DNA from: a virus
Lineage: Duplodnaviria > Heunggongvirae > Uroviricota > Caudoviricetes
IMG/VR virus record: IMGVR_UViG_2534682252_000039
Reading direction: 5' to 3' (one strand)
Length of the DNA: 61,732 bases
Below the pieces are notes generated by a model. The model saw only the letters and a list, made by a program, of their open reading frames with translations. It made no database searches and had not been told where the DNA came from. Below, piece after piece: positions 6,026-37,875 of this stretch (positions are counted from its first letter, which is position 1; every line of letters starts with the position of its first letter). The position numbers were made by a program, and so were the translations under genes.

Positions 6026-6039
6026 TCCAGGGGGCCATT

Positions 6040-6696: not shown

Positions 6697-6698
6697 TT

Positions 6699-7145: not shown

Positions 7146-7154
7146 GGGGGCAAT

Positions 7155-7406: not shown

Positions 7407-7416
7407 GGAGTGGTGA

Positions 7417-8682: not shown

Positions 8683-8715
8683 TTCACGATATTCCATTAA
8701 TACCATTTCCTGATG

Positions 8716-8740
8716 CCCGGCCATTGTGCCGGGTTTTTTT
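8716..8740 (+). terminator. Intra-operon hairpin with T7 run (possible attenuator) between gene 4 and the giant gene
   Basis: CCCGGCcattgtGCCGGG + TTTTTTT; overlaps the first in-frame ATG at 8713. Confidence 0.5.
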
Positions 8741-8751
8741 ATGGAGTCTGT

Positions 8752-14700: not shown

Positions 14701-17133
14701 GCGAAAATCAACCCGAAAATGCCGGACGGCGGTTCGGGGATGACCAACGCGGAAGCGGCGGAAATCATGCAGCGTGTACGTAACAGTGGCAAACAGGCAC
14801 AGTATGACCGTCTGGCAGGGATTATTGACGATATGCTGGCCCGTCGCCGTGAGCTTATCCGTGAGGCCGGACTTGAAGAGAACGGTGTGGTGGATGCCTG
14901 GCAGAACGCCTACCGTTACTACGTTCCCCTGAAAGGTCAGGATGTTGACGGTGTGGTGTCACTGCCCCGTACAGGTAAGGGCTTCACCATCGGCGGACGT
15001 GAAAGCAGGCAGGCCATGGGGCGTGCATCCCGGGCACAGTCTCCGTCCACTCAGGCGATACAGGACCTGAGCGAATCGCTGATCCGCCATCGCAAAAACG
15101 AAGTGGGTAACGCCTTCCTGAAACTGGTGCAGGATAATCCCGACAAGGATTACTGGCAGGTATTCACCGATGACAGACCGGATACCATGCGGACGATTGC
15201 AGAGCGCAAGGACCAGGAAACTGGTGAAACCATTCGCGAAGTTGTCGAACGCCCTGTACCGATGGCAATGATGGCAGACCGGTACTTCACCACCAAAAAG
15301 AACGGCAAAACGTACTACATCAAACTCCATGATCCGCGCCTGATGCGTGCGATGAAGAGTATGGGACCGGAAACCAGCAATGCCTTTGTTCGTACGCTGG
15401 GGAAAGTTAACCGCTTCCTGGCAACGGTGAACACGTCGTATAACCCGGAATTCCTGGTCAGTAACTTCATCCGTGACGTGCAGACGGCGGTGATGAACCT
15501 GAAGGCGGAGCAGGGAAGGAGCGACGGTAAACTGAAAGGGCTGGATAACTTATCCGCCCTGGCTGTGGTGAAAGACAGCCGTTCTGCCATGTCAGCCGTA
15601 TACGCCAGTCTGCGTGGTAAAACCCTCACGGGAAAAGGTGCACAGTGGCAGAAGGTGTGGAAAGAGTTTGTTGAGGACGGAGGGAAAACCGGCTGGTTTA
15701 ACATGGGTGACCTTGAAGGCCAGCAGAAGGAAATGGATCGCCTTGTCTCACTGGCGAAGGGGGGATGGAAAGGCCAGAGTATCGGTGCATGGAATTCGTT
15801 CCTTAACCTTGTCGAGGATGCCAACGGTGCGGTTGAAAACGCTCTGCGTCTTTCTGCCTATAAGCACGCCCGTGATGCCGGTTTGTCACGCCAGCAGGCG
15901 GCGTCTCTTGCCAAAAACATGACGGTGAACTTTAACCGTCGTGGTGAGCAGGGGGCGCTGATGAATTCGCTGTACATGTTCGCCAACGCCAGCATTCAGG
16001 GAACGGCAAATCTGGTGAGAACGCTCGGACATCTTAATGGTGAGGGACCTTTACTGGAGCGCCTTCGCTGGAAGAATCTGAATGTTCCGCAGAAAATCGC
16101 GCTTGCCGCTGTGGGAGCAGGTTATCTGCTTGGCTCGCTTAACCGCAGCGTGGCGGGTGAGGATGATGACGGGGTTAACTGGTATGACAAGGTGCCGTCT
16201 CATGTGAAAGAGCGTAACCTCGTCATTATGAAATCGGTGTTCGGGGGCAAGGCCGGAGAGTACTGGAGTATTCCTCTGCCTTACGGGTACAACGTTTTCT
16301 TCCTGCTCGGGCATACTGCTGAAGGTGTGGCGGCGGGTGACCTGACGGCGTCCCGTGCTGCCGGTAATGTTGTTGGTGGTGTGCTTGGTGCATTCAGCCC
16401 GATTGGCAGTGAGACGTCGGAAACACTGTCCGGGGCATTGCTGAAAAATGCAGCGCCGACCATTCTGCGTCCGTTTGCGAACCTTGCCATGAATGAAAAC
16501 TTCATGGGGGCGCAGATTTACCAGGAGAACATGCCGTTTGGTACACCAAAACCTGACAGCCAGCTGGGAAGACGTTCAACGCCAGAAGCGTACAAGGCGT
16601 TTGCATCCTGGCTGAATGCGTTCTCAGGTGGCAGCCAGTACCGTCCCGGCGCGGTGGATATCACACCGGAATCGCTGAAATTCTGGATTGACTATATCTC
16701 CGGAGGGACAGGGCGCTTCATTTCCAAAACCACGGATGCGGCGGTGAAATCGCTGAATGGTATTGATATACCGGAACAGCAGGTGCCCTTCCTGGGGAAA
16801 ATTTCGGGGGAGGTGATGCCGTATGCAGACCAGCAGAAGATGTACGACCGGATGACAGAGATTGCGCAGTATCACGCAGAGCTGAAGAGTCTGACCGGTG
16901 CAGAAAGAACGGCGTTCATTGACGAGAACAACGGAAAATTGTCGATGAACGGGCTTATGCAGGATACCCGGAAGAGACTGAAGGATTTGCGTAAACAGCG
17001 TGATGCCATTTACGCCGACAGTACTCTCAGTCTGGCGCAACAGTCGGCGATGGTGAAATCGGTAGAGCGGGATATGAAAATTGCCGTGGATCGGTTTAAC
17101 CGCGAGTACAACAAAAAAGTGGGAGTGGATTAA
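8752..17133 (+). CDS. Giant multidomain protein (~2,790 aa) with zincin-like HEWFH motif; candidate virion-packaged polyvalent protein
   Basis: Uninterrupted ORF 8713..17133; preferred start ATG 8752 after GGAG; HEWFH at ~12601-12615; RHEIIHHAMEH at ~13399-13431; glycine-zipper segment near 9975-10030. Confidence 0.8.
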   Translation: MAYSEEQRPEAQLGNQNRNSLNIQQPGETDSYEAFFSDPNRWKDNSTSFSLGDVLPTMGKGFAQSVRGTGEMARGLGDAMIQSPVKTGARILNEFSRMGLPGVATVQDIFAGGSRGADEVIDTLPDGKNAVTDTVGKGLKATGKAVSDGAKATDEWLTGKMSPGAVRALNTPMTEGYNDSAVWVAKGVNLIGALVPDMVAGGVARKVGDVTLRKMLTAGLEKKYIAAGMQPERATALAAEAVDKKMPDLFQAGLITHSTVSAQGQSAMAAADAVLNADYSELAQSPKFQQTFLSIDADPQHAQLTDRQKMDLAKERVADEVRAQLATDPELLAVNAMAAKLGDAQLFNLVTRGTAKTVKSGIVRNATEQGAINAAQGGYSRYQENTALRETAGMGVSPWEGVADATIEGAAFGAAMGAPFGAVAGYRGRRQAAEETAMRDAETVQQDDAAPQPESVDPVAQQRESMQGMNREQLLEQYADADMATEGDASAAHRREAASQLLNELDEQTKRQAVMNELKAKPRSELLEEYRRLSQKEGRTETEEQQFQAIREVIRPQQEVTPEAQSQPENAEDGNGSIYPTVRFRDPNEVRIEINGNGASRPAERIEKVRPDNRYFTDEKSAMGSDVFRNAAATGLKPSVVKKGENQYAVEMDNPAFSEDVATETINTLADGERIADADPMEQPAFMRDPRFRGFTGDDTEVQARLARGNAPTAEELVRSQMAEGDAGPTAQELTERPRLPAPGDIHPGQGYPLPGEVARTPDENQAGRGGRFTTTGEVKGQSFQKGQAPAPENAAGRQGETLEGDMVRRGLPSPDAQNATAPVREGLPAPDIARNVRMPQPESLPRTVRDSLPELAQQAEVRRQAGGNRDIPQPETIAPESETTVSTDREATVRGGEVRGKKIEDFGEEIKGAAKHRYAQLAETLGKTLEDRDYATQPLSKLFPKPDYAKLANEGADADTLAMIALYRSDIPAKTKHNTAGWGESIKKVRHSVSEMLNGTVSAKRLAEWMEGRMPSRYADTWQLLRTLPPSQMDRASAYRVVSGVYQAAGGKRYDPPQKLYSLRNKDNKGSNLFFSESRDELLAKAKVWFAEQEEKSQAKGDEKTAPSPDDKIRFDVYRNTRSGDIFIAYGKNKMRVRGGFKSASDARKYIDSHRDELVRHVKEMREISREEQRNATNRDRTGPERRKGNVSPEQFSDAFGFRGVQFGNYVEGPRRQADLNRAYDSLHDLAEVLNVPTKALSLNGRLGLAFGARGKGKAAAHYESGEVAINLTKGNGPGALAHEWFHSLDNYFGRYDVSNDGKITSGGDFMTEAQRVRRIFKDGRYVDAEYPVRQEVYDAFKGVIQAIKNSDMPRRSALLDEVRSKPYWSTDVEMAARAFERYVQDKARMAGVENDYLVNIRKAPEHNTDNTYAYPTNAELDGGIREAFDHLFRTLKTRETDKGVAFYSRKGVTRTPEGNLISDVNRSAEAKGSPVPQVEAVARGVMSGIKDSDLKVRVVKSQKEAEALAGELFDGYGRVHAFYRPDKREIVLVADNIPDGRTVREKLRHEIIHHAMEHVVTPAEYQTIIKTVLKTRDSDNVTIREAWRKVDASYGKESPEVQAGEFLAHMAEKQPNKFVAAWERVVALVKGVLRRTGLLKPTELNDIRLVRETIRTLGQRVREGYTPREDGAGASFQYSRSGKRDPFKVPEGEGERYRDDLARMMKSLRTTDLTVNIGRTPPVLRHLGAPDLPLVISRDTVRKATNGVKHVVPMDVIERLPELMHDPDAIYRSATERNAVVMLLDAVDKNGDPVVSAVHMKAVRSRLEINKVASVYGTENGKKLKSMEMTGLTLYRREKLSRDNLLHRGLQLPKGEHSYRGSADKILYPEDIRKGPYYSRTSSLTPEETIASRFVRQMQDKFQVLKAVQENIRKTGGKVDDSNNAYMAEELFHGKAENDLNVMKERYVQPLAKLLADYKIAQADLDEYLYARHAPERNAHIAKINPKMPDGGSGMTNAEAAEIMQRVRNSGKQAQYDRLAGIIDDMLARRRELIREAGLEENGVVDAWQNAYRYYVPLKGQDVDGVVSLPRTGKGFTIGGRESRQAMGRASRAQSPSTQAIQDLSESLIRHRKNEVGNAFLKLVQDNPDKDYWQVFTDDRPDTMRTIAERKDQETGETIREVVERPVPMAMMADRYFTTKKNGKTYYIKLHDPRLMRAMKSMGPETSNAFVRTLGKVNRFLATVNTSYNPEFLVSNFIRDVQTAVMNLKAEQGRSDGKLKGLDNLSALAVVKDSRSAMSAVYASLRGKTLTGKGAQWQKVWKEFVEDGGKTGWFNMGDLEGQQKEMDRLVSLAKGGWKGQSIGAWNSFLNLVEDANGAVENALRLSAYKHARDAGLSRQQAASLAKNMTVNFNRRGEQGALMNSLYMFANASIQGTANLVRTLGHLNGEGPLLERLRWKNLNVPQKIALAAVGAGYLLGSLNRSVAGEDDDGVNWYDKVPSHVKERNLVIMKSVFGGKAGEYWSIPLPYGYNVFFLLGHTAEGVAAGDLTASRAAGNVVGGVLGAFSPIGSETSETLSGALLKNAAPTILRPFANLAMNENFMGAQIYQENMPFGTPKPDSQLGRRSTPEAYKAFASWLNAFSGGSQYRPGAVDITPESLKFWIDYISGGTGRFISKTTDAAVKSLNGIDIPEQQVPFLGKISGEVMPYADQQKMYDRMTEIAQYHAELKSLTGAERTAFIDENNGKLSMNGLMQDTRKRLKDLRKQRDAIYADSTLSLAQQSAMVKSVERDMKIAVDRFNREYNKKVGVD

Positions 17134-17140
17134 CAGAAAT

Positions 17141-17165
17141 GGCCCCGTACGGAAGTGCGGGGCTG
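17141..17165 (+). terminator. Hairpin after the giant gene (no strong T-run)
   Basis: CCCCGtacggaagtgCGGGG. Confidence 0.3.
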
Positions 17166-17255
17166 ATTAAGAAATAAACACTCATTGACCTGTAATAACC
17201 GGAGCTATTAACATATAGTCAGAAGAGCATTTCATGTGATACAGAGAGCCGATTT

Positions 17256-17604
17256 ATGTTTAATGAAGAAAAAGTTGCGCAAATGGCAGCGTATTTGCTG
17301 AAAAAGCATGGCGGATCTATGCGTTTCATTAAGCTGAAGCAGCAACGGTAATGGCGAATAGCATTTATGAGCAAAATAATCTTGATATGTTATTAGGCGA
17401 TCTGATGTAACCGGGATGATGTTCACCCCTTATCGCCGGGGAACAATACCGGCAATCAGAATTGCGGATGGAACTATTCAGGCCCACGATGATATCGATG
17501 AGGAGTTTTTTCAGCCAGTATTGGATGGCTTTCTTATATCCAAATATACGCCATTTGACATCCTCCACGCCCTGAAGGACGGGGTTTTACAGCGCACCGG
17601 ATAA
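17256..17604 (+). pseudogene. Degraded GepA/DUF4065-like gene (three out-of-frame fragments)
   Basis: MFNEEKVAQMAAYLLKKHGGSMRFIKLKQQR-stop, then fragments ending ...FDILHALKDGVLQRTG; N-terminal pattern resembles DUF4065 proteins as remembered. Confidence 0.3.
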
Positions 17605-17683
17605 GATTCGGTGTTTTGTTGAAAAATACTGTGATAACAAACAGAAAACCCGTCAGTAAGACGGGCTTAGCAAGCTGGGACGG

Positions 17684-18028
17684 TTACTTTAATAATTTCA
17701 GTGCCTTTACATCCACTTCAACACTGCTCAGGTCTTTATCAATTTCACCCTCAATTCTTACTTTGTCTTTCGGAGAAACATTCTGACCGGCCCATATGCT
17801 GTCATCGATATCCGTGACAATTGTCCCGCTATTGTCACGAAACTCATAACGTTCATCACCCACTTTTTTAACGATGCTCCCTTCAAGGATAACCCATGCA
17901 TCATCCTTCAGTTCTTTTGCCTGCGCTACTGTTGAACGCTCTGCTTCAGGCCCTTGGAAACCGCCCTGCTGTGCAAAAGCGCCAAAAGACACACCAGAAA
18001 TAAGTGCTGCAATCAATACCTTTTTCAT
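17684..18028 (-). CDS. YgiW/YdeI (BOF) family periplasmic OB-fold protein
   Basis: Signal peptide MKKVLIAALISGVSFGAFA; conserved ...DDAWVILEGSIVKKVGDERYEFRDNSG... Confidence 0.8.
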   Translation of the reverse strand: MKKVLIAALISGVSFGAFAQQGGFQGPEAERSTVAQAKELKDDAWVILEGSIVKKVGDERYEFRDNSGTIVTDIDDSIWAGQNVSPKDKVRIEGEIDKDLSSVEVDVKALKLLK

Positions 18029-18147
18029 TCATAGTCCTCTTTCAGAGATGAACATTCAAACAGCATTTTCAGTATGGTAAAGCGCGGGTGCGTTGAGGAT
18101 GCCTGACACATCAGAGGTGGCGGGAGATTACTCCCCCGCTTGGTCTC

Positions 18148-18303
18148 TTACTTCTCAGATTCGTAGTCTACGAAGACAGCGACCTCCGTCTGACCGGTTC
18201 GGATTCGCACCTCGCAGAGGTCTTTCCTCGTTACCAGTGCCGTCACTATGACGGTTAAACAGATGACGATCAGGGCGATTAACATCGCCTTTTGCTGCTT
18301 CAT
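18148..18303 (-). CDS. hok: Hok/Gef-family type I toxin (HokD/RelF-like), with overlapping mok-like frame upstream
   Basis: MKQQKAMLIALIVICLTVIVTALVTRKDLCEVRIRTGQTEVAVF...; track ORF extends to 18360 in the mok-like frame. Confidence 0.85.
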   Translation of the reverse strand: MKQQKAMLIALIVICLTVIVTALVTRKDLCEVRIRTGQTEVAVFVDYESEK

Positions 18304-18593
18304 AGCCTGCTTCTCCTTGCCTTTCGGCACGTAAGAGGCTAACCTACATGTGTTCAGCATGGATTGAGCCTCAGATTAATGTTAAGCGTCTTGCCGGACG
18401 CGTAATGTTAACTGGGGCTTTTCTCTATCTGCCGTTGGTGTTCATGCCCGAGGCAGATAGCCTCAAGCACCCGCAGCAATTCTACTTAACTCTCCTTTTC
18501 CCGCAAACCGTTTTTATCTCCAGCGACAAATCGAATACACAACCAGCACCACCGCCATTACTGTTCCTACATTTGCGAATGCTTCAGGCCAGG

Positions 18594-18989
18594 TCATTGA
18601 TTCACCTTCTGCTCAATATTTTTAAGGTCATTTTCCGCATACAGTATTGCAGTTCTTGCTGCCCGCAACCGTGCTTTGGTGTTCTTTTCTTCACGCTCGA
18701 GGCTGGCAACAGATTCTCGGAGCTGATCGTGTCTGTTATGAAGCTGTCTAATCTCTCTCACCACAGCCTCACCATCGTTCGCACACCGCAGAACATACTG
18801 AAAAGGGTCCACAACACATCCGCACTGCAAGCACAGGATAACGTGATCCTGTTCATGAACCTCAATGGCCCGATGCTTACAGCTCTGTTGTGTGTAGTTT
18901 TTTCTGCCAGTTACTGTAATGTTCAGCAGCTTCTCTTCATCGCGCTTTGGCTGCACCAGTGTGATGATATTATCGCCTTCATTTTCCAT
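18594..18989 (-). CDS. Hypothetical Cys-rich / coiled-coil prophage protein
   Basis: Start MENEGDN overlaps upstream stop; CxxxxxC...CLQCGC motif. Confidence 0.45.
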   Translation of the reverse strand: MENEGDNIITLVQPKRDEEKLLNITVTGRKNYTQQSCKHRAIEVHEQDHVILCLQCGCVVDPFQYVLRCANDGEAVVREIRQLHNRHDQLRESVASLEREEKNTKARLRAARTAILYAENDLKNIEQKVNQ

Positions 18990-19648
18990 CAGTTCACCTC
19001 CTGCGGCGGTTCTGGTAGCGGCATCCAGTGTGACGGTTTCCACGACGCACCAGGAATTATCCACCCATCATTAGCGTCAGGATGCCCCGGGATGTAAGTC
19101 GCCCACTTCATTCGCCAGTCACCTTTCCTGTCAAACTCCACGGCAACAAGAACGGCTGTTTTGGTATCCGGCATTCGCTCACTACAACTTATCCAACCAT
19201 CCGGAGTTACCGGAGAGTTGCCAGACAGCGCATTCTGCAACCGTTCCAGCTTAACGTATTCCTGAACCCTGTTTCCGTCGCACGCCTGAAGCCATTGCTC
19301 AGCCTTTTGCGCATCAGTGTGAAAGGCACAAGTGCGACCGTCATCAAATTGCATTTCGTAGAGGTTAGCAATCTGTTCAAACTGCGTGTGTGGCAACTTG
19401 TAAGTTTGGCTTACGAGTTCGGCTTCCAGTTCTGCTATGCGCTTCTCTGATGCTTCAAGTAACGCCTGCTTATCGCGTAGCGCTTCTTCCAGTTCAGCAA
19501 CATGGCATTCACTATCAATAAGGTTGTTCTCTGCTGCTCCCAGCTCAACTCTCAGCTTCCCAACCGTAAGCGCAATCTCCTCGTTCTCCTGGTCGCGGCG
19601 TTTGATGTATTGCTGGTTTCTTTCCCGTTCATCCAGCAGTTCCAGCAC
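18989..19648 (-). CDS. DUF551-domain protein with Ea22-like coiled-coil N-terminus
   Basis: C-terminal ...PSHWMPLPEPP typical of DUF551. Confidence 0.6.
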   Translation of the reverse strand: MLELLDERERNQQYIKRRDQENEEIALTVGKLRVELGAAENNLIDSECHVAELEEALRDKQALLEASEKRIAELEAELVSQTYKLPHTQFEQIANLYEMQFDDGRTCAFHTDAQKAEQWLQACDGNRVQEYVKLERLQNALSGNSPVTPDGWISCSERMPDTKTAVLVAVEFDRKGDWRMKWATYIPGHPDANDGWIIPGASWKPSHWMPLPEPPQEVN

Positions 19649-19668
19649 GGTAGCCGGGTTAGCCTCTG

Positions 19669-19911
19669 CTATGAATTCAGCGTTGCATAAGCCTGAGCAT
19701 CTGTTTCAACCAGGCAGTTAACATGACATTCTGCAATCACGCCACCGGGTTCTCCTTTCCATTTTTGGCAAACAAAAACTCCTGTTAAATTGCCGTGCTG
19801 GTTAACAGATGTATGCCCTACGATGTAGCTTCCTTTAGTTGCTTTCTCTGCCTTTTCACGCAGTGCCTGATAGTCAATCTTGCTCATTTTTCTCTTCACT
19901 CCGGTATACAA
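19669..19911 (-). CDS. Hypothetical prophage protein
   Basis: ORF track. Confidence 0.4.
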   Translation of the reverse strand: MYTGVKRKMSKIDYQALREKAEKATKGSYIVGHTSVNQHGNLTGVFVCQKWKGEPGGVIAECHVNCLVETDAQAYATLNS

Positions 19912-20158
19912 GGATTACTACGCCCCCTCTGCTAATTGCGCGAGCTGGATCCCCTGGTTCCATGCCGTCAATACCGAAGGCTTCGAAAAATGCATCTATT
20001 GCCTTTTGGCGTTGCTCCTGCTTACGGCGTTTATTCCATTTTTTCATGAACAACAGTGACAGCCATCGTCCGCTGCAGAACATGATGTAGAAATAACCAA
20101 GGAGCGCTAGGCCGGTGTTCAGGGCTGTATCGATCGTTATCGTGGTGTTGATGTTCAC
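19874..20158 (-). CDS. Hypothetical small membrane protein
   Basis: Hydrophobic N-terminal segment. Confidence 0.4.
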   Translation of the reverse strand: MNINTTITIDTALNTGLALLGYFYIMFCSGRWLSLLFMKKWNKRRKQEQRQKAIDAFFEAFGIDGMEPGDPARAISRGGVVILVYRSEEKNEQD

Positions 20159-20376
20159 TTCACACCTCTCTGTTTGTTGATAAGTTCAATATCCTGCTGG
20201 CAACTGGCGCAAGCTCTGCATCCACGAACAGCCAGGCGTCGCCGCTCATCTATCGGATCGCCACACTCGCAACAATGAGTAGCAGATGGGGCATTACTAT
20301 CGGATTTGTATTTTTGCAGGGAGAGATTGCGCTGCAATTCTTCGATTTCAGCGGCGTTGTCGATGATATCTGCCAT
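20155..20376 (-). CDS. TraR/DksA-family C4 zinc-finger protein
   Basis: CCECGDPIDERRRLAVRGCRACASCQ. Confidence 0.6.
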   Translation of the reverse strand: MADIIDNAAEIEELQRNLSLQKYKSDSNAPSATHCCECGDPIDERRRLAVRGCRACASCQQDIELINKQRGVK

Positions 20377-20423
20377 TTTCCTTTCCTTCAGGCATGAAAA
20401 AAGGAGCCGAAGCTCCTTTGGTT

Positions 20424-21053
20424 TTAGAATTCGAATTGCCTTGCCCGCAGGCTTTTCAGCATTGGTCTGGCCCGCTGAACTACGAAACTCGACTGGTCAA
20501 GCCGTGCCGCCTCTCTCAGTAGCACATCTCTGTTCTTCGTCACCATGTAGATGGTCTCAAACGCAATGTCATACAGCTTGTTCGTGTATGAGGAGTTCAG
20601 CTCTTTCATGATCGGATACAGGTGTTTGCTGAGGTCCTGGGCTTTTTCCATCCAGAGTTGCATGTAGCAGAGGAGGATGATTTCCTCGTCTGTGAATTGT
20701 TGCTGTGGTTCTGCTTGTGCCGACTGCATGTTGCGAAGTTTCTTTTCGCACTCGATGAAGTATCTGCGTATCTGTCGGCCTTTTTCGTTACGCTCTACCA
20801 TCGCCGTTTCTTTGGCTGTATCGAGGGTAAGGTGGTAGTCTTTTTTCCCTCGCCCATAACCTATTTCCCGTTTCTGGGAAATAGCTATATAGTCCTGATT
20901 TTCAACGAATCCGTACTCTTCAATACGTTCTGTAATCCACGATGCAAAGCGTTTACCTACTCCAAGAAAAGTATGTAAATCACGGGCATTAACGAGAAGA
21001 GTGGTTTCGTTGGCGATAGTGCCGTTGAATACGGGGATGAGTTGACTGGTCAT
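20424..21053 (-). CDS. Phage antirepressor-like protein (AntA N-terminal domain)
   Basis: N-terminal IPVFNG...ARDLHTFLGVGKRFASWITERIEEYGFVENQDY. Confidence 0.65.
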   Translation of the reverse strand: MTSQLIPVFNGTIANETTLLVNARDLHTFLGVGKRFASWITERIEEYGFVENQDYIAISQKREIGYGRGKKDYHLTLDTAKETAMVERNEKGRQIRRYFIECEKKLRNMQSAQAEPQQQFTDEEIILLCYMQLWMEKAQDLSKHLYPIMKELNSSYTNKLYDIAFETIYMVTKNRDVLLREAARLDQSSFVVQRARPMLKSLRARQFEF

Positions 21054-21080
21054 GATGACCTCCTTATTTGTTTAGTTTAT

Positions 21081-21103
21081 AACCGCCAGTTAGTAGCTGG
21101 CGG
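21081..21103. repeat. Inverted repeat ACCGCCAG-N7-CTGGCGGT upstream of the antA-like gene
   Basis: Seen in sequence. Confidence 0.3.
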
Positions 21104-21350
21104 TCGGGTGTCAACTGAGCCAAATAAGAAGCTCTGGGCATATTCCCCTTGCGGGTGTTGTATTACGCCTCTCCACCCGACCTTTGTACGGATGTAACTA
21201 TGCCAAATTGCAGGCATAAAAAAGCCGCAAAGCTATCGGGTGCGGAGACCGCTTATTTGTTCAGTGCGGTCAGTATGCGATAGCTCTGGAGGATTTGTCA
21301 ATCAGCGGAATATTGATGAACGGGTAACGGTAAATGCCTCATCCAGAAAA

Positions 21351-21383
21351 TTAACGCAAATTCGCATCGCAAACTTGCGTTAA
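21351..21383. repeat. Palindrome TTAACGCAA-N15-TTGCGTTAA (operator-like)
   Basis: Seen in sequence. Confidence 0.3.
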
Positions 21384-21416
21384 TTATCTGAAATATCAAG
21401 TTAAATCCCCTTAAAT

Positions 21417-21476
21417 GTTTGGGGCACTATTGGGGCAAAATGTGGTTGTTTGGGGCATATTTGGGGCAAAAAAGAA
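21417..21476. repeat. Four direct repeats of TTTGGGGCA(a/t) ~110-170 bp from the wrbA junction; candidate integrase arm-type sites
   Basis: tttggggcac / ttggggcaaaa / tttggggcat / tttggggcaaaa. Confidence 0.45.
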
Positions 21477-21585
21477 CGTATAAAGAACGGTGTAAAATTG
21501 ATTTCTTCATGGTCAAAATGAGGTGTAACAGATTGAAAAATATATGCTCTTGGACGATCTTCGGTAATTCTGTGTTTTTAATGCT

Positions 21586-21640
21586 TCATGGTTTCAATAT
21601 GTCCGTACATGGAATAATAAAGCACCAGAACTTTAGCCAT
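21586..21640 (-). pseudogene. wrbA: wrbA 5' fragment (first ~18 codons), interrupted by the lambdoid prophage
   Basis: Minus-strand MAKVLVLYYSMYGHIETM then KH-stop; matches remembered WrbA N-terminus, diverging after ATTGAAAC. Confidence 0.7.
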
Positions 21641-22011
21641 TTCTAACCACTCCTCGTGTTATCTCTATTCCGTAGCGATTCGCTACCACTTATTTAAAGA
21701 TAAGACGTCCTTTTCAGAGTGCAAATTTCACAACCACTTATTTGATTTATAACAACTTTCACAAGCACGCAATTTTGTCGCAAAATGACACATTTTTATC
21801 TCATCGCGTTTTTTTAATCATAAGAGCGGCTTATGGATAATTATTGGAGATGATATCTATTCTCGCTAAGAAGCTGTTGCAGGATATTACCAAACGCGGG
21901 TAGAAACACGTCAGTTCACTAAGCTTAGTCCCACGTAGCGAAAATATGGCAGCCGCCATACGCCGCGTTAATTCTAGCAATATGATGTCTATACCCAGAC
22001 GGAGGTCAGTA

Positions 22012-22119
22012 ATGGCAAACCATCGAGGCGGTTCCGGCAATTTTGCAGAAGACCGCGAAAGAGCATCAGAAGCAGGTAAAAAAGGTGGCAAGAGCAGTCA
22101 CGGCAAAAGCGACAACTAG
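22012..22119 (+). CDS. ymdF: Small KGG-repeat stress protein, YmdF-like (35 aa), absent from the ORF track
   Basis: GGAGGT RBS; MANHRGGSGNFAEDRERASEAGKKGGKSSHGKSDN. Confidence 0.6.
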   Translation: MANHRGGSGNFAEDRERASEAGKKGGKSSHGKSDN

Positions 22120-22201
22120 CCGGGCTAATCAATGACGAATGCATTTTTTTCTTAAGCTCGTCAAAAAGCCATCACCGCCGGTAACCCCGGCGGTTTTCTG
22201 T

Positions 22202-22735
22202 TTATGGCTCCTGATGAACAACTTCTGGCGGTGGAACGTCAACCAACCTTCTGCTTAATAACGCATTGAGTAAAATCGCGCCAAAGGTTGCTGTACCGAT
22301 TCCTCCCAACGTAAAACCGCCCAGCGTGAGAGCAAAATCACCCGCGCCCAGCACTAAGGTTACTGCGACCATAATCAAATTACCGTTCTGGCTTAAATCG
22401 ACACGGTTTTGTACCCATATCCTTGCGCCTGCGACGGCAATCAGCCCGAACACAACAATTGATGCACCACCAATCACCGCGGCCGGAATGGTATGAATCA
22501 GCGCGCCAAATTTCGGTGAAAAGCCCAACAGCATGGCGATGACGGCAGCAGCAACAAACACCAGCGTCGAGTAGACTTTTGTCACGGCCATCACACCGAT
22601 ATTTTCAGCATAGGTGGTGACGCCGCTACTGCCGACAGAACCAGAAAGCATCGTTGCCAGACCATCGCCTACGAATGCTCGCCCCATATACGGGTCCATA
22701 TTGCGTCCGGTCATCCCGGCGACCGCCTTGAGATG
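22202..22735 (-). pseudogene. rutG: NCS2-family nucleobase permease, 3' portion only (rutG-like), 5' part displaced by the Mu-like prophage
   Basis: Multi-TM C-terminal region ...TTYAENIGVMAVTKVYS...; in-frame codons run up to ~22733 and then hit phage-end sequence; wrbA-ymdF-rutG neighbourhood as remembered for E. coli. Confidence 0.6.
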
Positions 22736-22830
22736 TATAGCGCGGCGATTTTTTTGATACCGATTTGCATTTCATTTGATACCGCTGAAAAACGCCGATA
22801 CGCAACTTATTTGATACTAAATCGGCGCTT
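22734..22830. repeat. Mu-type right end: terminal TG followed by three TTTGATAC(C/T) repeats (candidate transposase-binding sites)
   Basis: TGTATAGCGCGGCG... resembles remembered Mu end TGAAGCGGCGCACGAAAA; repeats at ~22751, 22775, 22811. Confidence 0.5.
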
Positions 22831-22863
22831 TTCTTTTGGGTTTTAGAATGAGTTTTTAAGCGT

Positions 22864-23601
22864 TCACTCACTCTCTTTTAAACCAGTTTTAACTGTTTGT
22901 GGTTTTGGGTAAGGCTGGACTTTGAATAGCTTTGTGTTGAGGCGTTTTCTGGCCCTCTTGTTCAGAAACCGGATGTAACGAAACTGACGGAATTTATGAA
23001 CACTGGCTCTGTCGATATTAGCCCTCAGATGTTCACCTCGCTGTCCGCCTCGTTTAATGGCATTCCTGCAAATCTCGTGATACCACTCGCCATCAAGTTC
23101 ATAGAATGTTGATTCGTGGCTGCCTACATAATCAAAATTGCTTGCCTGATACACGACACCAAGACAGCCACAACGCTCATCTGCAAACGACTGAACCCAC
23201 TGTACCTGCGGATAAAGCTGCCTGATTAGCTTGAGCGCGTAACTGATTGCCCTTGATTCGGAGTTTCTCGGCATACAGTCATGCAGCCATAACCGGTTAA
23301 GCTCCATATATTCACGGTTCCGCGTGCCCGTTACGACGCGTGCACCACTGTTTGGATTAAGGGCATAGCCCCATTGCATTACGCCAACCAGCTCCCGTTC
23401 TGAAAATATGCCCAGATGAAGGTAGGAGTTATTTACGAAACGGTGGCTGTAATGTTTATTGACGATGACCAGTCTGGCCAGCCAGCAACTTATTGTCTCA
23501 ACCCGCAACTCACGGGAGCCATAACCAACGATATTGTCGTTATAGCGAATAAGTTCAGGCGTGCTGATGATACGGGATGTGACTTGCTTTCTGTTCCCCA
23601 C
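22864..23601 (-). CDS. mom: Mom-like DNA modification protein
   Basis: Size and position after com at the phage right end; overlaps com 3' end. Confidence 0.8.
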
Positions 23602-23755
23602 GACAGGATTTCCTTGTGTATGTGGGGTGCTCTGTGGCGCTCGGAGATGTGATTTGATTGAGGGTTTTACAGCGCGGACATTTTACTTCCAGATAACTGA
23701 AACTGGCCCGTGCCAGTAGCTTATTGCAGTGTCGGCACCGTATGTTTCGATACAT
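23555..23755 (-). CDS. com: Com zinc-finger translational activator of mom
   Basis: [14 protein letters not shown]...VKCPRCKTL matches the Mu Com Cys4 pattern; track ORF begins at an upstream non-ATG codon. Confidence 0.8.
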
Positions 23756-23950
23756 GGCCGCATAACCTCCTGCTTTGTTGTTGATGCCTTTCTCATGCAA
23801 TCGATCGACAAAAACGATCGATTCGATTTGTTTAATTGATACAACAAATAGATTGAAAAGTCATCAACAATGATTCAGGGCGGTGATTATTTACTTAAAG
23901 AAAACGAAGACTTAGGTGGTGAAAACGATCATAAAATGATCATTTTATTG
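23756..23950 (-). promoter_or_regulatory. mom regulatory region with clustered GATC (Dam) sites
   Basis: TCGATCGAcaaaaaCGATCGAT at ~23801-23822 and GATCATaaaaTGATCA at ~23929-23945. Confidence 0.45.
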
Positions 23951-24015
23951 ACTTTTTATACAGTGAAGGTAGGATCGCGCGTATATGTAGTATGTTTCAA
24001 ATCAACAGGATACTA

Positions 24016-24046
24016 CATAAAGGGAGGTCCAGATAGTTACAGCTAT
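24016..24046. repeat. 11-bp perfect inverted repeat AGGTCCAGATA-N8-TATCTGGACCT upstream of the mom region
   Basis: Seen in sequence. Confidence 0.4.
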
Positions 24047-24156
24047 CTGGACCTGGAACAAATTCGCATCAATGCTTTACTTCGAGCTCGTGTCGTATCC
24101 TATGATATTCCCCGGTCTCCTGTAAAGCAGAGATGCATAAAAAGGAGATCTTTATC

Positions 24157-24327
24157 ATGGATAAAGAGCCTGTTTGCCCTGCCTGTAAGACTCCCTTACA
24201 GCTCATCTATCGCCGTTCTCGATCTCAAAATGGCAAGACATACAAACCCCAAAATGCGTCCTGTTTCAGGATGCTGATATGTCCTGCCTGTTCTCCCCGG
24301 AGGGAAAGTACACAAAACGTGCATTAA
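24157..24327 (+). CDS. Small Cys4 zinc-ribbon protein, convergent with phage genes
   Basis: AAGGAG RBS; MDKEPVCPACKTPL...CPACS. Confidence 0.3.
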   Translation: MDKEPVCPACKTPLQLIYRRSRSQNGKTYKPQNASCFRMLICPACSPRRESTQNVH

Positions 24328-24365
24328 CAAATTCACCCGGCAGGGAAACCTGCCGGTCGGTATTG

Positions 24366-24611
24366 TTACATCATAGTACCGTCAGTTCCGGGCTGAACCG
24401 GCTCTGGTTGCTCTACGGCTTGAGGCTCATTCTCCGTGCTGTTTTCAGCCGGAGAATGGCCAACCATTCGGGCCAGCACTTCATCAACATATGCGTCGAT
24501 TTGTGCCTCAAAATCCTTGCGAACCTGCGCCTTCAGCACGCGGTTCACTTCTTCAGAATAAAGTGCCTGTTTGACAAGCTCTTCAGTAACCGTGCCTTTA
24601 ATCTCTGGCAT
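24366..24611 (-). CDS. Small acidic hypothetical protein (cargo)
   Basis: ORF track. Confidence 0.4.
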   Translation of the reverse strand: MPEIKGTVTEELVKQALYSEEVNRVLKAQVRKDFEAQIDAYVDEVLARMVGHSPAENSTENEPQAVEQPEPVQPGTDGTMM

Positions 24612-24646
24612 GAATATTCTCCTTTTGCAGGTATATTGCCCCGTTA

Positions 24647-24829
24647 TCAGAGCGGGGTCGGGTCGTTTGGGGATGACGGTGCCTGTGCTGTTTTACTGAG
24701 TTTTTCAGCTGCCGCATCATCAATTTTACGGCGAATATAATTTCTGATGACCTTATAACCGCCGCTCACCAGATATAACGCACTGACCACTGCGCAGAAA
24801 TAAAGCAGCATTGTATGAACGAATGTCAT
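24647..24829 (-). CDS. Small membrane protein (cargo)
   Basis: Single hydrophobic helix LLYFCAVVSALYLV. Confidence 0.4.
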   Translation of the reverse strand: MTFVHTMLLYFCAVVSALYLVSGGYKVIRNYIRRKIDDAAAEKLSKTAQAPSSPNDPTPL

Positions 24830-24933
24830 ATAACCTTACCTTTGATATTGACTACATAATTCGTTATCGGGTAAAAACATCGAAGCGACTGATAACCACT
24901 ACTTCGGGAGTATTTTTATTTTCCTTTATGGGT

Positions 24934-24968
24934 TAGGTAGCTCCCGCCAGCCATATCATGACCGGCGG
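24934..24968 (+). terminator. Hairpin CCCGCCag...ccGGCGGG + T7 just beyond the esterase stop, opposite strand
   Basis: Seen in sequence. Confidence 0.4.
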
Positions 24969-24975
24969 GATTTTT

Positions 24976-27015
24976 TTATTCTGTTACCGCTTTTTTCACT
25001 TCCACCACAATGCTGTCAATCAGCACCGGGTAAGTTGCATTTTTTGTGATATCCGTTACGCGGAGTTTGTCCACCGGGAAAGTTCCTACTGGTGACTGCG
25101 TCAGGGTAAACGCGGCACCATCCTGACCATCAATAACCGGAATAACCTGAAGGCTGTTATTTCCTGCAAAACGGAAGGCCAGCGTATGCCATTCATTATC
25201 AAATGCACCAAAGGTTCCCAGTTTCTGGTTATTTGTTGCCACTTTTGCATTGTGGTACATCACATTCAGGTCTTTTGCGTCTGTCTGGATGTAGAACGAT
25301 GCCAGCAGATTATTCCCTGCATCCCCTGTCAGGGTGACACCCTGCGGCAGAGAGGAAACCGGCCAGTAAAGCGCCATGACATACTGGTTTGCCACCAGGT
25401 CGCCCGGTACTTTAAAACGACAACTGATTAAACCACCATTTTTCAGCAGTTCAGCACCAGTACCGGCATCATGATCCAGATACCAGGATGATTTACCTGT
25501 TTCCTTGGTCAGTTTCATTGCCTTACCACCTGTGCCTCCTGTATCACTGATAATTTCAGCTTTACCGCCAGCCGGCTCCCAGCCCTGGGCTTTCAGATTT
25601 CCTTCTGACTCACTGACACGGTAAGACAGCAGTGTTGTGGTTACTGCTTCAGTTTCTGAAGGTGACGGCACTGGTGCTTCAGTTTCAGAAGATGGAACAT
25701 CGGCTTTTACTGTGGTTCGCCCCGCATGAGTCAGAACTGCCGTGGCCAGACGGTCGGAAATAATCCCACGACGTGCCCATGAACTGAAATGGCTGGCCCG
25801 GTCCGTAGATGTCCAGGTGGCGGCACTGTTACGCCACGTTGAGCCGTAATAACCAATGGATTCAATATCCGGGTCTTCTGCCGGATTGTTGGTGGGTACA
25901 TTCGCGCCATTTTCATCTGTCATTAATGGGACGAAATGAATGTTTTTATCTGTTTTATTTTTGTAGCCGTCATAGATTGCCTGGTATGCCTGTTCGTTTT
26001 TCTGTTTCCAGAAATACGTGGTATCACCACAAATCCACGGAACGCCAGCAGCACTGCCACCGGTACACTGTTCCGCCTGTTCAGCCAGGTCTGCGCGGAA
26101 TTTTTCCACCATCGCCAGAAACAGCGCAGAATGCTCCGTCGGCTTCGCATCAATATCAAACTCGCCCTGCATCCACACCACAGCAAGCAGGCGGTTTTTC
26201 GGGTTCTTCGCCAGTGCCGCTTTTGTCCGGCTGATTAAGTCCTTATACAGCGGCTTATCCACACCCCAGCGGGCTGAGTCCTCTGAAGCACCCGTGCTGT
26301 CACTGTACGTGCCGTCAGCACCCGCCGTGAATGCAGAACCACCACGGCAGCAGGGAACCAGCAGAATCCCCGCATCTGCCGGAATAAACGGCAGCAGTTT
26401 TTTGGCAATGTGAAGCCCCTGACCCACGGTGCCATATTGCCCTTTAGCCACATCCGCTTTCGGGTGATTTTTTCCACTCATATCCTGCACATCATGCAGA
26501 CAGTGGTCGGCCAGAATGATGTCGTTATACTGACAGGCTTTACCTCCCGGCGTGACTGTACTGCGACGGGCTAACTGCATAATACGCGGTTCGGGGCGGT
26601 CATATGTCTCCGGCAGTGGCAGACCTTCACCGTAAGCCATACCGTTTGACTGACCAGCAAGAACCACCACGTAATACCAGGAAGGGGAGCTGGAAGCAGT
26701 TTCATTTCCTGACGGACGGGTATGTGTTTCAGCATTATCCCAGTCTGACGGTTCAGCAGTACCGGCAACATCAGCACTTAACGGAATGACCGCACCAATA
26801 CCCGCTCCGGTAATTTCCACACTCGGATCACCGGATACTGGCCTTACCCACAGGCAATCCCGTGTATTAAAACTGATGAGACAGTCAGCAAATGTCATTC
26901 CTCCTTTTGTTTCGGCCGGAGGAAAGGGAGCCTCAAGAAATGCCGCTGTACCACCGGAAACTTTAACAGTAAAGTTTCCGGGCATTGATGATAGTTGAAC
27001 CCATTTGGACGTCAT
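24976..27015 (-). CDS. SASA/SGNH-type carbohydrate O-acetylesterase with C-terminal beta-rich domain (NanS-p-like)
   Basis: Catalytic-block motifs VLAGQSNGMAYGE and VWMQGEFD; C-terminal ~250 aa beta-rich. Confidence 0.7.
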   Translation of the reverse strand: MTSKWVQLSSMPGNFTVKVSGGTAAFLEAPFPPAETKGGMTFADCLISFNTRDCLWVRPVSGDPSVEITGAGIGAVIPLSADVAGTAEPSDWDNAETHTRPSGNETASSSPSWYYVVVLAGQSNGMAYGEGLPLPETYDRPEPRIMQLARRSTVTPGGKACQYNDIILADHCLHDVQDMSGKNHPKADVAKGQYGTVGQGLHIAKKLLPFIPADAGILLVPCCRGGSAFTAGADGTYSDSTGASEDSARWGVDKPLYKDLISRTKAALAKNPKNRLLAVVWMQGEFDIDAKPTEHSALFLAMVEKFRADLAEQAEQCTGGSAAGVPWICGDTTYFWKQKNEQAYQAIYDGYKNKTDKNIHFVPLMTDENGANVPTNNPAEDPDIESIGYYGSTWRNSAATWTSTDRASHFSSWARRGIISDRLATAVLTHAGRTTVKADVPSSETEAPVPSPSETEAVTTTLLSYRVSESEGNLKAQGWEPAGGKAEIISDTGGTGGKAMKLTKETGKSSWYLDHDAGTGAELLKNGGLISCRFKVPGDLVANQYVMALYWPVSSLPQGVTLTGDAGNNLLASFYIQTDAKDLNVMYHNAKVATNNQKLGTFGAFDNEWHTLAFRFAGNNSLQVIPVIDGQDGAAFTLTQSPVGTFPVDKLRVTDITKNATYPVLIDSIVVEVKKAVTE

Positions 27016-27114
27016 AATAATCAGCCTGTTCCTGAATAAACTGAATTATCATATCCACAGACCGATAAACGCCATTTTGCGTTAATTCAGTAAAGGCCCA
27101 ACAAAGAGAGCGTC

Positions 27115-27675
27115 TTATTTTTCCGAAACGCTCGCAGGATAATAACGATAAAGGGTTGAAAGACCGATATCAAAAATAAGTGCCACCTGTCTTCGACTGA
27201 CACCCCCGGCCAGTAAACGCCCGACCTGCTCGTATTGTTCCTGCGTGAGACGGCGGGGTCTGCCGCCGGTTCGTCCCCTTTCACGGGCAGCTGCAAGACC
27301 AGCCCGTGTCCGTTCGACAATTAATTCACGCTCCATTTCTGCCAGCGCACCCATTATGTGAAAAAAGAAGCGCCCCATGGGGGTTGACGTATCAATGTTG
27401 TCAGTAAAACTACGAAAATTTATCCCCTGTTGCTGTAATTCATCTGTCAGCGCAACAAGGTGGCGCATACTGCGCCCCAGCCTGTCCAGTTTCCAGACCA
27501 TCAGCGTGTCACCGGGTTTTAGTTTCTTCAGTGCCCGCTTCAGTCCCGGCCGCTGTGTCGTTTTACCACTCATTTTGTCTTCAAAAATCTGCTCACATCC
27601 TGCACATTCCAGCGCATTTCTTTGTAAACCTGTGTTCTGGTCATTTGTTGATACGCGTATATAGCCAATCAGCAT
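27115..27675 (-). CDS. gin: Serine DNA invertase (Gin/Hin/Pin/Cin family)
   Basis: MLIGYIRVSTNDQNTGLQ with catalytic Ser; C-terminal HTH; adjacent to inversion site. Confidence 0.9.
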   Translation of the reverse strand: MLIGYIRVSTNDQNTGLQRNALECAGCEQIFEDKMSGKTTQRPGLKRALKKLKPGDTLMVWKLDRLGRSMRHLVALTDELQQQGINFRSFTDNIDTSTPMGRFFFHIMGALAEMERELIVERTRAGLAAARERGRTGGRPRRLTQEQYEQVGRLLAGGVSRRQVALIFDIGLSTLYRYYPASVSEK

Positions 27676-27728
27676 GTATTTACCTTCCTTAAAAAGAGGT
27701 GGAAAGGCCTTTTAAAGCAGATATACGG

Positions 27729-27754
27729 CATCCCTGAAACCTCGGTTTACGGGA
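27729..27754. repeat. gix-like crossover site L
   Basis: ATCCCTGAAACC-TC-GGTTTACGGGAT; half-sites fit remembered gix/hix consensus TTnTCnnAAACC. Confidence 0.55.
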
Positions 27755-28109
27755 TACGGTAAACAGGGCCGCGAATGCCCTGCCATCAAACGGTACGGCT
27801 GTTGCAGCAAGCAGGCTGGCAAATGCCCGCAGAATCAATGGTGTCGCCTTTGACGGCACGCAGGATATAAACATTACGTCAGGAATGCCGGAATCAACGG
27901 CCAATCAGCGTTATGTTACAGGGGTAAGACTGGGAGCGCAGGCATTAAGCGGCGGACTGGAATATAATTACTCCCTGTCATCAGGAAATGTGATTACCGG
28001 TTTTAAGACTAACGGAGACTGGGAAATGCGTGGTGGTGATGACCGTGTTTATTACAGACAGATACAATATTGTATTAATGGGCATTGGGTATCCGCTGCA
28101 AGTATTTAA
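27755..28109 (+). CDS. Alternative tail-fibre C-terminal cassette (S' variable part), no own start
   Basis: Frame open from gix-L; ...INGVAFDGTQDINITSGM... homologous to S residues ~177-225, then a different tip. Confidence 0.6.
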
Positions 28110-28230
28110 TTAACGGGGGCATAGCACACAGCAGCCAGCATCTGAAATATGCGTTATTTCAGACAAGCATTGCCTGTATATGGCGATAGTATTATTCCTG
28201 TTTTTATCATTGATTTACATGGTGATGTTT

Positions 28231-28752
28231 ATGCAACTGATTAATGTCAAACGATATTACCCGAAAGACAAACCCTATGGTGAGGATGTTCAGTATTTCC
28301 AGAGTGAGGACGGAAGGGATTTTTATGAATCTATCCCGCTTTTCACAAAGAAATACAAACTCTGTATTTCGCCTGTAACGGGTATTATCTGCTCTGTTGC
28401 TGAAGATGTCTCTGCTTTATATCCGGCAGGTTTTACTGTTGTTGAAGTGGACGAACTGCCGGAAGGTGTGAATATTGACGGTAACTGGCAGTTTTCTGAT
28501 GGCCTGATATCAAAGGTGCCGGTAAACTGGAAGACGGTTGCTGAAAAGCGTCGCTCATCGCTGCTCCAGGAAGCCAACGAAACCGTGGATGACTGGAAAA
28601 CAGAATTAAAACTGGACATGATTAGCGATGAAAATAAATTACAGCTGACGCGCTGGATGGCGTATATCCGACAGCTTAAAGAAATGCACTTTAATGATAT
28701 TGCCAGTGAGGGGCATTACCAGGCGATTCCCTGGCCGGAAAAACCGGAATAA
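28231..28752 (+). CDS. Tail fibre assembly protein (U'/Tfa family) for the alternative cassette
   Basis: Start at MQLINVKRYYP; track ORF begins upstream at 28180. Confidence 0.65.
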   Translation: MQLINVKRYYPKDKPYGEDVQYFQSEDGRDFYESIPLFTKKYKLCISPVTGIICSVAEDVSALYPAGFTVVEVDELPEGVNIDGNWQFSDGLISKVPVNWKTVAEKRRSSLLQEANETVDDWKTELKLDMISDENKLQLTRWMAYIRQLKEMHFNDIASEGHYQAIPWPEKPE

Positions 28753-28786
28753 TTCAGAGGGTGCATTCAGCACCCTTTTCTGTGGT

Positions 28787-29698
28787 TTACACTGAACTTA
28801 CCGATCTCCAGGCATTATTAATATAAATCTGAACCGGGCGATAATAGACCCCACCGATATTGTCCGCAGACCGGGAGCCGGTTTCCTGCACGTTAATACC
28901 GGAAAGCATACAACCGGAAGGTGCGCTGTAATTCCATGATATTTCATTGCCTCCGGGTGAATGATAGCTCTGTGCTCCAAGCTGAACATTCTGTACATAC
29001 CGGCCATCTGCGGTTGACTGCGTCATTCCTGACGTGATGTTGATATCCTGCGTTCCGTCAAAAGGAACGCCATTAATATTTCTTGGGGTGGCGAGTCTGT
29101 TTGCTGCCACGGCGGTTCCACCCGATGGCAGGGCATCAGCAGCCTTATTTACCGTTTCCCGTAAACCGACGTTATCGATAAAAGCGCCTTTATCCGGAAT
29201 GTCTGCGCCGTTCTGCTCCCTGCGCAGGTAACGGTTATCACCTTCGCTCCTGCTGTAAACATCCAGATTATTACGGGCGGTTTCCGCATTCTCCAGGTCG
29301 GCAAGGTTCTGATCCTTCGCCAGGGCATTAACGTCAGCGGGACCAAGACTGTTTTTTGTGGCAAGCGTCCCCAGACCAAGATAACCACGGGCCAGACGCT
29401 GGGCTTCCGCACCGGCATCAGCAATTTCTTTCAGGTTGTTTTTCCGGGAAAAGGCATTCGCAGCGATAATGGCTTTAATGGACAGCGTAAGCTGGTTTAA
29501 CTGCGCCTTATCCGGCTGAATACTGGCTTCAGCCAGAATATTCAGCAGTTCGGCCTGGAGAATATTCAGCCAGTCCTGACCAATCCAGCTGATACCTTTT
29601 TGTCCGTCACCTTCGGTAAACCAGGTGGTGGTATTACTCTGCGCCGGAGCCAGTTCAGGCATATTCGCCACGCCGGAATTATTATCAACATGGAACAT
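28787..29698 (-). CDS. S: Tail fibre protein S (constant N-terminus + current variable tip)
   Basis: Start MFHVDNNSG abuts upstream stop; 303 aa; gix-R lies at codons ~173-181. Confidence 0.8.
   Translation of the reverse strand: MFHVDNNSGVANMPELAPAQSNTTTWFTEGDGQKGISWIGQDWLNILQAELLNILAEASIQPDKAQLNQLTLSIKAIIAANAFSRKNNLKEIADAGAEAQRLARGYLGLGTLATKNSLGPADVNALAKDQNLADLENAETARNNLDVYSRSEGDNRYLRREQNGADIPDKGAFIDNVGLRETVNKAADALPSGGTAVAANRLATPRNINGVPFDGTQDINITSGMTQSTADGRYVQNVQLGAQSYHSPGGNEISWNYSAPSGCMLSGINVQETGSRSADNIGGVYYRPVQIYINNAWRSVSSV
29156..29181. repeat. gix-like crossover site R, inside S
   Basis: Minus strand TTATCGATAACG-TC-GGTTTACGGGAA, inverted relative to site L. Confidence 0.55.
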
Positions 29699-37867: not shown

Positions 37868-37875
37868 GCCTTACC

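Follow-up and report, generated by a model that had tools for sequence, protein, structure and literature searches.

The analysed DNA (IMG/VR record IMGVR_UViG_2534682252_000039; 61,732 nt, referred to here in its full length as the window, with all positions given in window coordinates) almost certainly comes from the chromosome of an O157:H7-type Escherichia coli in which two unrelated mobile elements lie 1.14 kb apart, a lambdoid prophage in wrbA and a Mu-like prophage in rutG. The sequence identities, both junctions, the target duplication and the gene content were observed directly. The gap between the prophage boundaries measured about 1.14 kb (21598-22735), in agreement with the original prediction, made from the letters of the window, of two prophages some 1.1 kb apart. 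The DNA in this gap (ymdF and intergenic sequence) is ordinary O157 chromosome and no phage debris. Both kinds of element are already known, and the wrbA configuration is the standard one for O157:H7.

The window was compared with 5,426 complete E. coli genomes and with the genomes of K-12 MG1655 and O157:H7 Sakai. The left junction of the Mu-like prophage was obtained from E. coli PA7 (EKH04925.1) and from the Logan assembly of SRR427091, both of which overlap the window without mismatches. The PA7 contig AMTQ01000018.1 (GCA_000302735.1, 204,938 bp), reached through the 170-aa C-terminal ORF of RutG, was identical to the window over 20,513 nt and showed the gene order Mom - rutG' - KGG - AntA; the PA7 draft contig starts about 226 bp before the window, inside the lambdoid prophage.

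Insertion of a Mu-like prophage into rutG

The gene rutG encodes an NCS2 pyrimidine permease and is the last gene of rutABCDEFG. Its 3' part in the window was 100% identical to O157:H7 Sakai as far as 22735 and divergent beyond, matched the Pfam family Xan_ur_permease at profile positions 259-386 only, and contained a longest ATG-started open reading frame (ORF) of 170 amino acids (aa) at 22202-22714. The 5' part (nt 1-799) was found in the same strain beyond the left end of the Mu-like prophage, with 0 mismatches to Sakai, and the two parts summed to 1,329 + 4 nt. Instead of an uninterrupted 442-codon ORF downstream of rutF, the gene is split after nt 799. The intact target site in Sakai reads CTTGAGATGACC, in the wider context ...CCTTGAGATGACCTAAG..., and the junction of rutG and phage in the window reads ...CCTTGAGATG/TATAGCGCGG... 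(slash, junction). The segment 21300-22735 was matched in one piece by 213 O157-type genomes with rutG intact and Sp5 adjoining, at 100% identity in all 30 among the matches listed. The splitting of a rutG-like permease gene by a Mu-like element, as originally predicted, was borne out. The permease ORF does meet a Mu-like end, but not at about 22733 as had been proposed, since rutG runs to 22735 and the phage begins at 22736.

The other Mu end and the 5' half of the permease gene, which the original prediction had suggested seeking together with a 5-bp target duplication, were both found just beyond the window; the duplication, however, comprised 4 bp (GATG). Logan contig L023 (SRR427091) carried rutA-rutF and rutG nt 1-799, followed by TGTAACCAGG..., the repressor gene, A and B, and its overlap with the right-hand end of the window, 9,755 nt long, contained 0 mismatches. 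The junctions were ...GAGATG/TATAGCG on the right and ...GGTTACA/GATGACC on the left (L023), and because GATG is present at both, it is the duplicated sequence. RutG-Mu fusion products were also predicted for duplications of 0-8 bp, and each was looked up by exact sequence in a collection of 15 billion proteins. Only a 267-aa product was found, which fits the 4-bp junction; this truncated RutG, ending ...ENLGHL, is EKH04925.1, annotated as a permease family protein of Escherichia coli PA7 and encoded on a contig of 204,938 bp. The 268-aa product predicted for Mu-type TG/CA ends with a 5-bp duplication was absent from that collection. As the 267-aa product was the only one detected, the termini were re-examined.

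The right ends of 10 independent insertions were alike only up to ...AATCGCCGCGCTATA (...CTATA) and diverged after it, and the element therefore starts at 22736 (TATAGCG). The left ends finished with ...CACCTGGTTACA in 10/10 independent insertions, and the alignment set in at 22736 in all 234 matching records. The termini of the element are 5'-TGTAACC...GCGCTATA-3'. The dinucleotide TG at 22734-22735, earlier taken for the Mu terminus, had to be rejected as such; it is rutG sequence, and the right terminus is TA. Copies of TTTGATAC were located at 22753, 22775 and 22810, all on the plus strand, confirming the three repeats noticed near the Mu-type end; 3 copies within 65 bp compare with 1.67 expected per 61.7-kb window. 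Counted from the termini, TTTGATAC lies at nt 18, 40 and 75 of the right end and, in inverted orientation, at nt 18, 113 and 165 of the left end. The position of the first copy at nt 18 in both ends lends support to the terminus at 22736. In Mu the end sites are compact on the right (R1-R3) and split on the left (L1/L2-L3), a layout mirrored by the spacing of TTTGATAC; by analogy, these repeats may be the sites bound by the transposase.

A duplication of 4 bp was found in 10/10 insertions for which both junctions were available (PA7 and nine others). Besides GATG, the duplicated sequences were GGTG (Z1836), AGTG (Z852), CTCT (JAFIIA01), TTAT (F7508), AACG (2009C-3554), TAAA (Sakai Sp18, in sorM), TATA (ECP19-798), CGCC (RM8385) and TGCG (SCU-106). 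A 5-bp reading of the PA7 junctions, AGATG, was rejected, as it needs the invariant terminal A of the phage to be counted twice, and moving either terminus by one base to rescue 5 bp failed for all pairs, save by chance PA7. Strain 2010C-3347 (CP034806.1; Logan contigs L027/L036) stands outside the count of ten: its full-length copy is flanked without a duplication by unrelated sequences, a giant Big_13 adhesin gene on one side and the DUF5682/yehP region on the other, probably as a result of an inversion or exchange among the several Mu-like copies of that strain.

The duplication and termini set the element apart from Mu itself, with its 5-bp duplication and 5'-TG...CA-3' ends; this holds against Mu proper and not against the broader class of Mu-like phages. 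Target duplications of 5 bp in Mu, 6 bp in B3 and 6 bp in Leptospira transposable prophages, the last with TA-TA or TG-CA ends, have been described (PMC8705779). No description of a 4-bp duplication in Mu-like phages was found in the searchable full-text literature, and none is given in PMC8705779. We put forward tentatively, as somewhat short of an even chance, that Sp18-type phages transpose with a 4-bp stagger and asymmetric termini (left 5'-TG, right 3'-TA) in a manner that is perhaps undescribed. If so, a rule of 5- or 6-bp scars would miss or mis-delimit Sp18-type prophages, which are common in Shiga toxin-producing E. coli (STEC), and the Sp18-type transpososome would offer a natural variant for the study of how stagger length is set.

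Predicted consequences for the rut operon

An Sp18-type Mu-like phage has transposed into the gene after rutG nt 799 and duplicated GATG, so placed that its mom end faces the rutG 3' part and its repressor/transposase end the 5' part. The outcome is the 267-aa truncated RutG and a promoterless rutG 3' fragment, and RutG function is predicted to be lost. As rutG closes the operon and the phage sits beyond rutF, rutA-F stay joined to their promoter. Transcription of rut would enter the left end of the phage, where it would be codirectional with ner-A-B and antisense to the repressor gene; any influence of this on induction is pure speculation. At the opposite end, mom reads out of the right end toward the rutG 3' fragment, and the terminator scan gave no terminator-like site between the two.

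In other strains with intact wrbA and without the Mu-like insertion (L003, L005-L009, L011; Logan SRR2187193 and related runs; ERR499298), rutG was frameshifted into ORFs of 272 + 170 aa or 140 + 131 + 170 aa, and rutG has therefore been inactivated independently in several lineages.

Gene plan and relatives of the Mu-like prophage

The Mu-like prophage has a full length of 39,247 bp, the final 250 bp of which, including the left terminus, lie past the window edge. From 22864 onwards the minus strand carries mom, com, small DUF826 and DUF1378 genes, a gene for a 679-aa SASA/DUF6645 protein and a Gin-like invertase gene, then tail-fibre, baseplate, tape-measure, tube, sheath, head, portal, terminase and lysis genes, Mor and GemA, and finally Gam, Kil, a MuB-type ATPase, the transposase and ner. 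The order is that of the whole Mu plan, inverted: transposase A and the MuB-type ATPase are adjacent, the repressor, assigned by its position, is divergent from ner-A-B, com-mom occupies the opposite end, and Gam, Mor and Gin lie between. The stop codon of the repressor gene is the last codon of the window, and its product gave 0 Pfam hits. The Mu-transpos_C, HTH_Tnp_Mu_1 and Phage-MuB_C matches all exceeded the gathering scores.

Among isolated phages, the transposase was most similar to those of Pseudomonas phage VW-6B (48% identity), a Klebsiella phage (41%) and phages of the D3112/DMS3 type (about 30%). A phmmer search of PDB sequences returned only weak matches to retroviral integrase cores and did not reach MuA. 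The genome is thus mosaic, since its transposase is nearer to those of VW-6B and the D3112/DMS3 type than to that of Mu, yet its late genes and com/mom are Mu-like.

The element was present in 232-233 of the 5,426 complete genomes, where it occupied 284 places, each flanked by unrelated genes, with up to 4 copies per genome; DNA identity to the copies in 232 complete genomes was about 95-100%. The phage collection held no isolated phage close at the DNA level, and its only near DNA matches were 'inserted Mu-like phage' regions in two Stx (Shiga toxin) phage records. Sp18 of Sakai has been reported as Mu-like and apparently intact (PMC2669165), and its family as occupying strain-specific sites (PMC7430833). 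The present element shares with Sakai Sp18 (in sorM) and with relatives such as Phi804-3 of FRIK804 the termini TGTAACCAGG... and ...CGCGCTATA, the 4-bp duplication and the gene order from repressor/ner/A/B to com/mom. It differs from Sp18 in length (39,247 bp versus 38,759 bp) and in its site, as an insertion at rutG nt 796-799 was found in 0 of the complete genomes.

With Mu, the element has in common c/ner/A/B on the left, Gam, Mor, lysis and contractile-tail late genes, the Gin invertible tail-fibre segment and com-mom on the right, as well as three repeated sites per end, packed on the right and split on the left, and insertion at many sites. In contrast to Mu, which has a 5-bp duplication and a CA right end, it shows 4 bp and TA; its transposase has diverged so far that MuA structures were beyond the reach of phmmer, and no megablast similarity to Mu was obtained. 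The cargo that separates gin from com is also absent from Mu. B3 and the Leptospira transposable prophages are comparable in that duplication length and terminal dinucleotides vary across transposable phages (PMC8705779), but they have no sequence relation to the element save distant transposase homology.

In the cargo, the 679-aa protein (24976-27015, minus strand) combines SASA, a sialate-O-acetylesterase-like domain, with DUF6645. The small DUF1378 and DUF826 genes (24366-24829, minus strand) are of a kind seen in lambdoid STEC phages.

The wrbA junction

Read on the minus strand, 21640 to 21587 gives the WrbA N-terminus (MAKVLVLYYSMYGHIETM), after which come KH and a stop codon; this agrees with the original prediction, which had read the first 18 residues of WrbA and then divergence at about 21586-21640. 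An alignment to K-12 MG1655, also suggested there, showed that identity sets in at 21587/21591 and runs across the wrbA-ymdF spacer. The annotated end of the Sakai feature 'prophage Sp5, lambda-like phage' maps to 21590, and the 'attachment site' of Stx2 phage II (AP005154) corresponds to 21591-21597, in keeping with the proposal that the divergence marks a prophage junction at a lambdoid attachment site. The DNA to the left was 100% identical over 21,590-21,597 nt to Stx2 phage II, the Stx1-converting phage of Morioka V526, PA4, PA5, PA16 and others. Judged by the identity of this arm and by a junction at the GTTTCAA core, the break in wrbA is the attR of an Sp5/933W-type Stx-converting prophage with classical wrbA integration. 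Such a phage has integrated site-specifically at the usual GTTTCAA core in wrbA codons 16-18, leaving 18 wrbA codons at attR; the remaining wrbA would have to be at attL, about 41 kb to the left of the window. WrbA function would presumably be lost.

The matching Stx-converting phages (PA4, PA5, PA16 etc.) are each 62,708 bp long. No stx gene is to be expected in the window, because it holds only the last 21.6 kb of a prophage of about 62.7 kb. The toxin type is not readable from the window, since Stx1- and Stx2-converting phages have this right arm in common and the stx region is located upstream. Compared with Sp5/933W-type Stx2a-converting wrbA prophages, the last 21.6 kb (100% identical), the 7-bp core, the wrbA junction and the neighbouring chromosome are the same, whereas stx genes, integrase and attL here fall outside the window. 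Four direct TTGGGGCA repeats in the phage arm, about 125-170 bp from the att core, are probably candidate arm-type sites for the integrase of the wrbA phage.

Two further features of this arm were observed. Upstream of the antirepressor gene, in the stretch from its start (21053) to attR, there is a match to the Rfam family sRNA-Xcc1 (21094-21182, minus strand; 69.1 bits, gathering score 53, E=1.2e-11). An ORF of 2,806 aa (8713-17133, plus strand) with the Pfam domains LPD5, LPD1, MuF_C and LPD38 is a large polyvalent-protein type gene of 933W-like phages.

Alternative explanations and significance

Several points weigh against two prophages joined to an O157:H7-type chromosome as described. 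Both assemblies of the left junction probably stem from the reads of one strain and so represent a single isolate. The junction of rutG and the Mu-like element occurred in 0/5,426 complete E. coli genomes. The canonical hallmarks of Mu, a 5-bp duplication and CA at both 3' ends, are replaced by 4 bp and a TA right end. The window includes neither the stx genes nor the integrase end of the wrbA prophage, from which its toxin type and completeness would be judged. The absence of the rutG junction from complete genomes, together with a draft source whose contig starts inside the lambdoid prophage, would suit a chimera created by a repeat-induced misjoin of the draft assembly. Both junctions, however, lie at the exact phage termini, every base of rutG is accounted for, and a random misjoin would not yield the family-typical 4-bp duplication at exact termini; a second assembler (Logan, SRR427091; contigs L012 and L023) also gave both junctions, from reads that may be the same data set. 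A chimera is thus considered very improbable. Still less credible is a deletion or unrelated rearrangement as the cause of the break in wrbA. It would fit the presence of only 18 wrbA codons in the window, with the other part outside, but the break falls on the 7-bp attachment site annotated for Stx2 phage II and on the Sp5 boundary of Sakai, whose sequence is identical through the junction.

Unlikely too, although less so than the two explanations above, is the view of the Mu-like element as an inert and decayed remnant that has become fixed at its site, as opposed to a recently transposed and potentially active phage. In related copies, a gene that lies between DUF826 and com carries a frameshift annotation, which would accord with decay. 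The element is, however, of full length (39.2 kb), with both of its termini and three repeat sites at either end, and has uninterrupted ORFs for repressor, ner, A, B, gam, mor, lysis, head, tail, gin, com and mom. In addition, the insertion is private to one strain, near-identical copies occupy hundreds of other sites with up to 4 per genome, and Sp18 was judged intact in Sakai (PMC2669165). The prophage in rutG may still be active, as far as its sequence allows a prediction, and its insertion is a private and probably recent transposition event of one strain.

The main value of these results is for annotation. The exact boundaries of two prophages have been fixed in an O157:H7-type draft genome in which both wrbA and rutG are interrupted, with 1.1 kb of normal chromosome between them. 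The rutG insertion, which yields no new biology by itself, could be used to mark the strain and is an example of the continuing mobility of Sp18-type phages in STEC. In delimiting Sp18-type prophages, the 4-bp duplication and the TA right terminus take the place of the 5-bp scar and TG/CA ends that are usually assumed, and the 4-bp duplication with TG…TA termini in the Sp18 family is the only detail that is possibly undescribed.

Sequence features and the spacer between the prophages

The coordinates of the features are compiled in Table 1; no tRNA genes were found in the window.

Table 1. Features of the two prophages and of the chromosomal DNA between them (E, E-value; CDS, coding sequence; HTH, helix-turn-helix)
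Feature	Position	Strand	Basis
Lambdoid Sp5/933W-type Stx-converting prophage, right arm (late, tail and accessory genes)	1..21590		100% identity to Stx phages
Four direct TTGGGGCA repeats, spacing 11, 20, 11	21419..21468	+	Phage arm; overlap with AP005154 repeat_region 'arrangement g; region III'
wrbA 5' remnant, 18 codons, then 2 phage-derived codons and stop	21587..21640	-	Translation; K-12 alignment
7-bp att core GTTTCAA, attR crossover region	21591..21597		AP005154 misc_recomb 31889-31895 maps here; K-12 identity begins
ymdF, intact 35-aa allele, one KGG repeat unit fewer than K-12	22012..22119	+	K-12 alignment; Pfam KGG E=9.8e-10
GC-rich hairpin between convergent ymdF and rutG, terminator-like on both strands	22174..22194		Terminator scan
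rutG 3' fragment, nt 796-1329 of 1329-nt CDS, codons 266-442 and stop	22202..22735	-	100% Sakai identity
Target-site duplication copy GATG	22732..22735		Second copy 251-254 bp beyond window, directly after Mu-like left end
Sp18-type Mu-like transposable prophage, right (mom) end first	22736..61732	-	Gene content; Pfam; termini of 10+10 independent insertions
Putative right-end transposase-binding region, TATAGCG then three TTTGATAC	22736..22830	+	Repeats; analogy with Mu R1-R3/L1-L3
mom (DNA modification), transcribed toward right end	22864..23601	-	Pfam Mom E=4.5e-77
com (zinc-ribbon translational activator of mom)	23555..23755	-	Pfam Zn_ribbon_Com E=2e-12
Gin-like serine invertase, adjoining tail-fibre genes	27115..27675	-	Pfam Resolvase and HTH_7
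MuB-like AAA+ transposition ATPase	57667..58599	-	Pfam Phage-MuB_C E=2.6e-25 (88.6 bits); AAA_22
Transposase A, 696 aa	58671..60761	-	Pfam Mu-transpos_C E=1.5e-17 (63.8 bits); HTH_Tnp_Mu_1 E=6.9e-6 (26.9 bits)
ner-like early regulator	60763..61011	-	Pfam HTH_35 E=2.5e-19
Repressor, c-like by position, divergent from ner/A/B	61202..61732	+	Position; HTH protein annotation in RefSeq copies

Between wrbA and rutG, a KGG-repeat ORF was found at the orthologous position and with the flanks of ymdF. It differs from its K-12 counterpart by the clean in-frame loss of 66 bp between two copies of GAAGCAGGTAAAAAAGGTGG (20-bp direct repeats), which gives a product of 35 aa versus 57 aa in K-12 and keeps the KGG motif. 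The 35-aa gene was also called in strains with intact wrbA (L003, L005, L006 and others), and in O157 genomes its annotation is that of a general stress protein. For these reasons the form of ymdF in the window is, by all sequence indications, an allele unrelated to either prophage, and its earlier description as a ymdF-like remnant does not hold. The ymdF-rutG spacer of K-12 contains an extra 174-bp insert bounded by repeated CACCGCCGGT, absent from the window (at about 22170) and from O157 genomes; by its appearance, this insert resembles a repetitive extragenic palindromic (REP) element.

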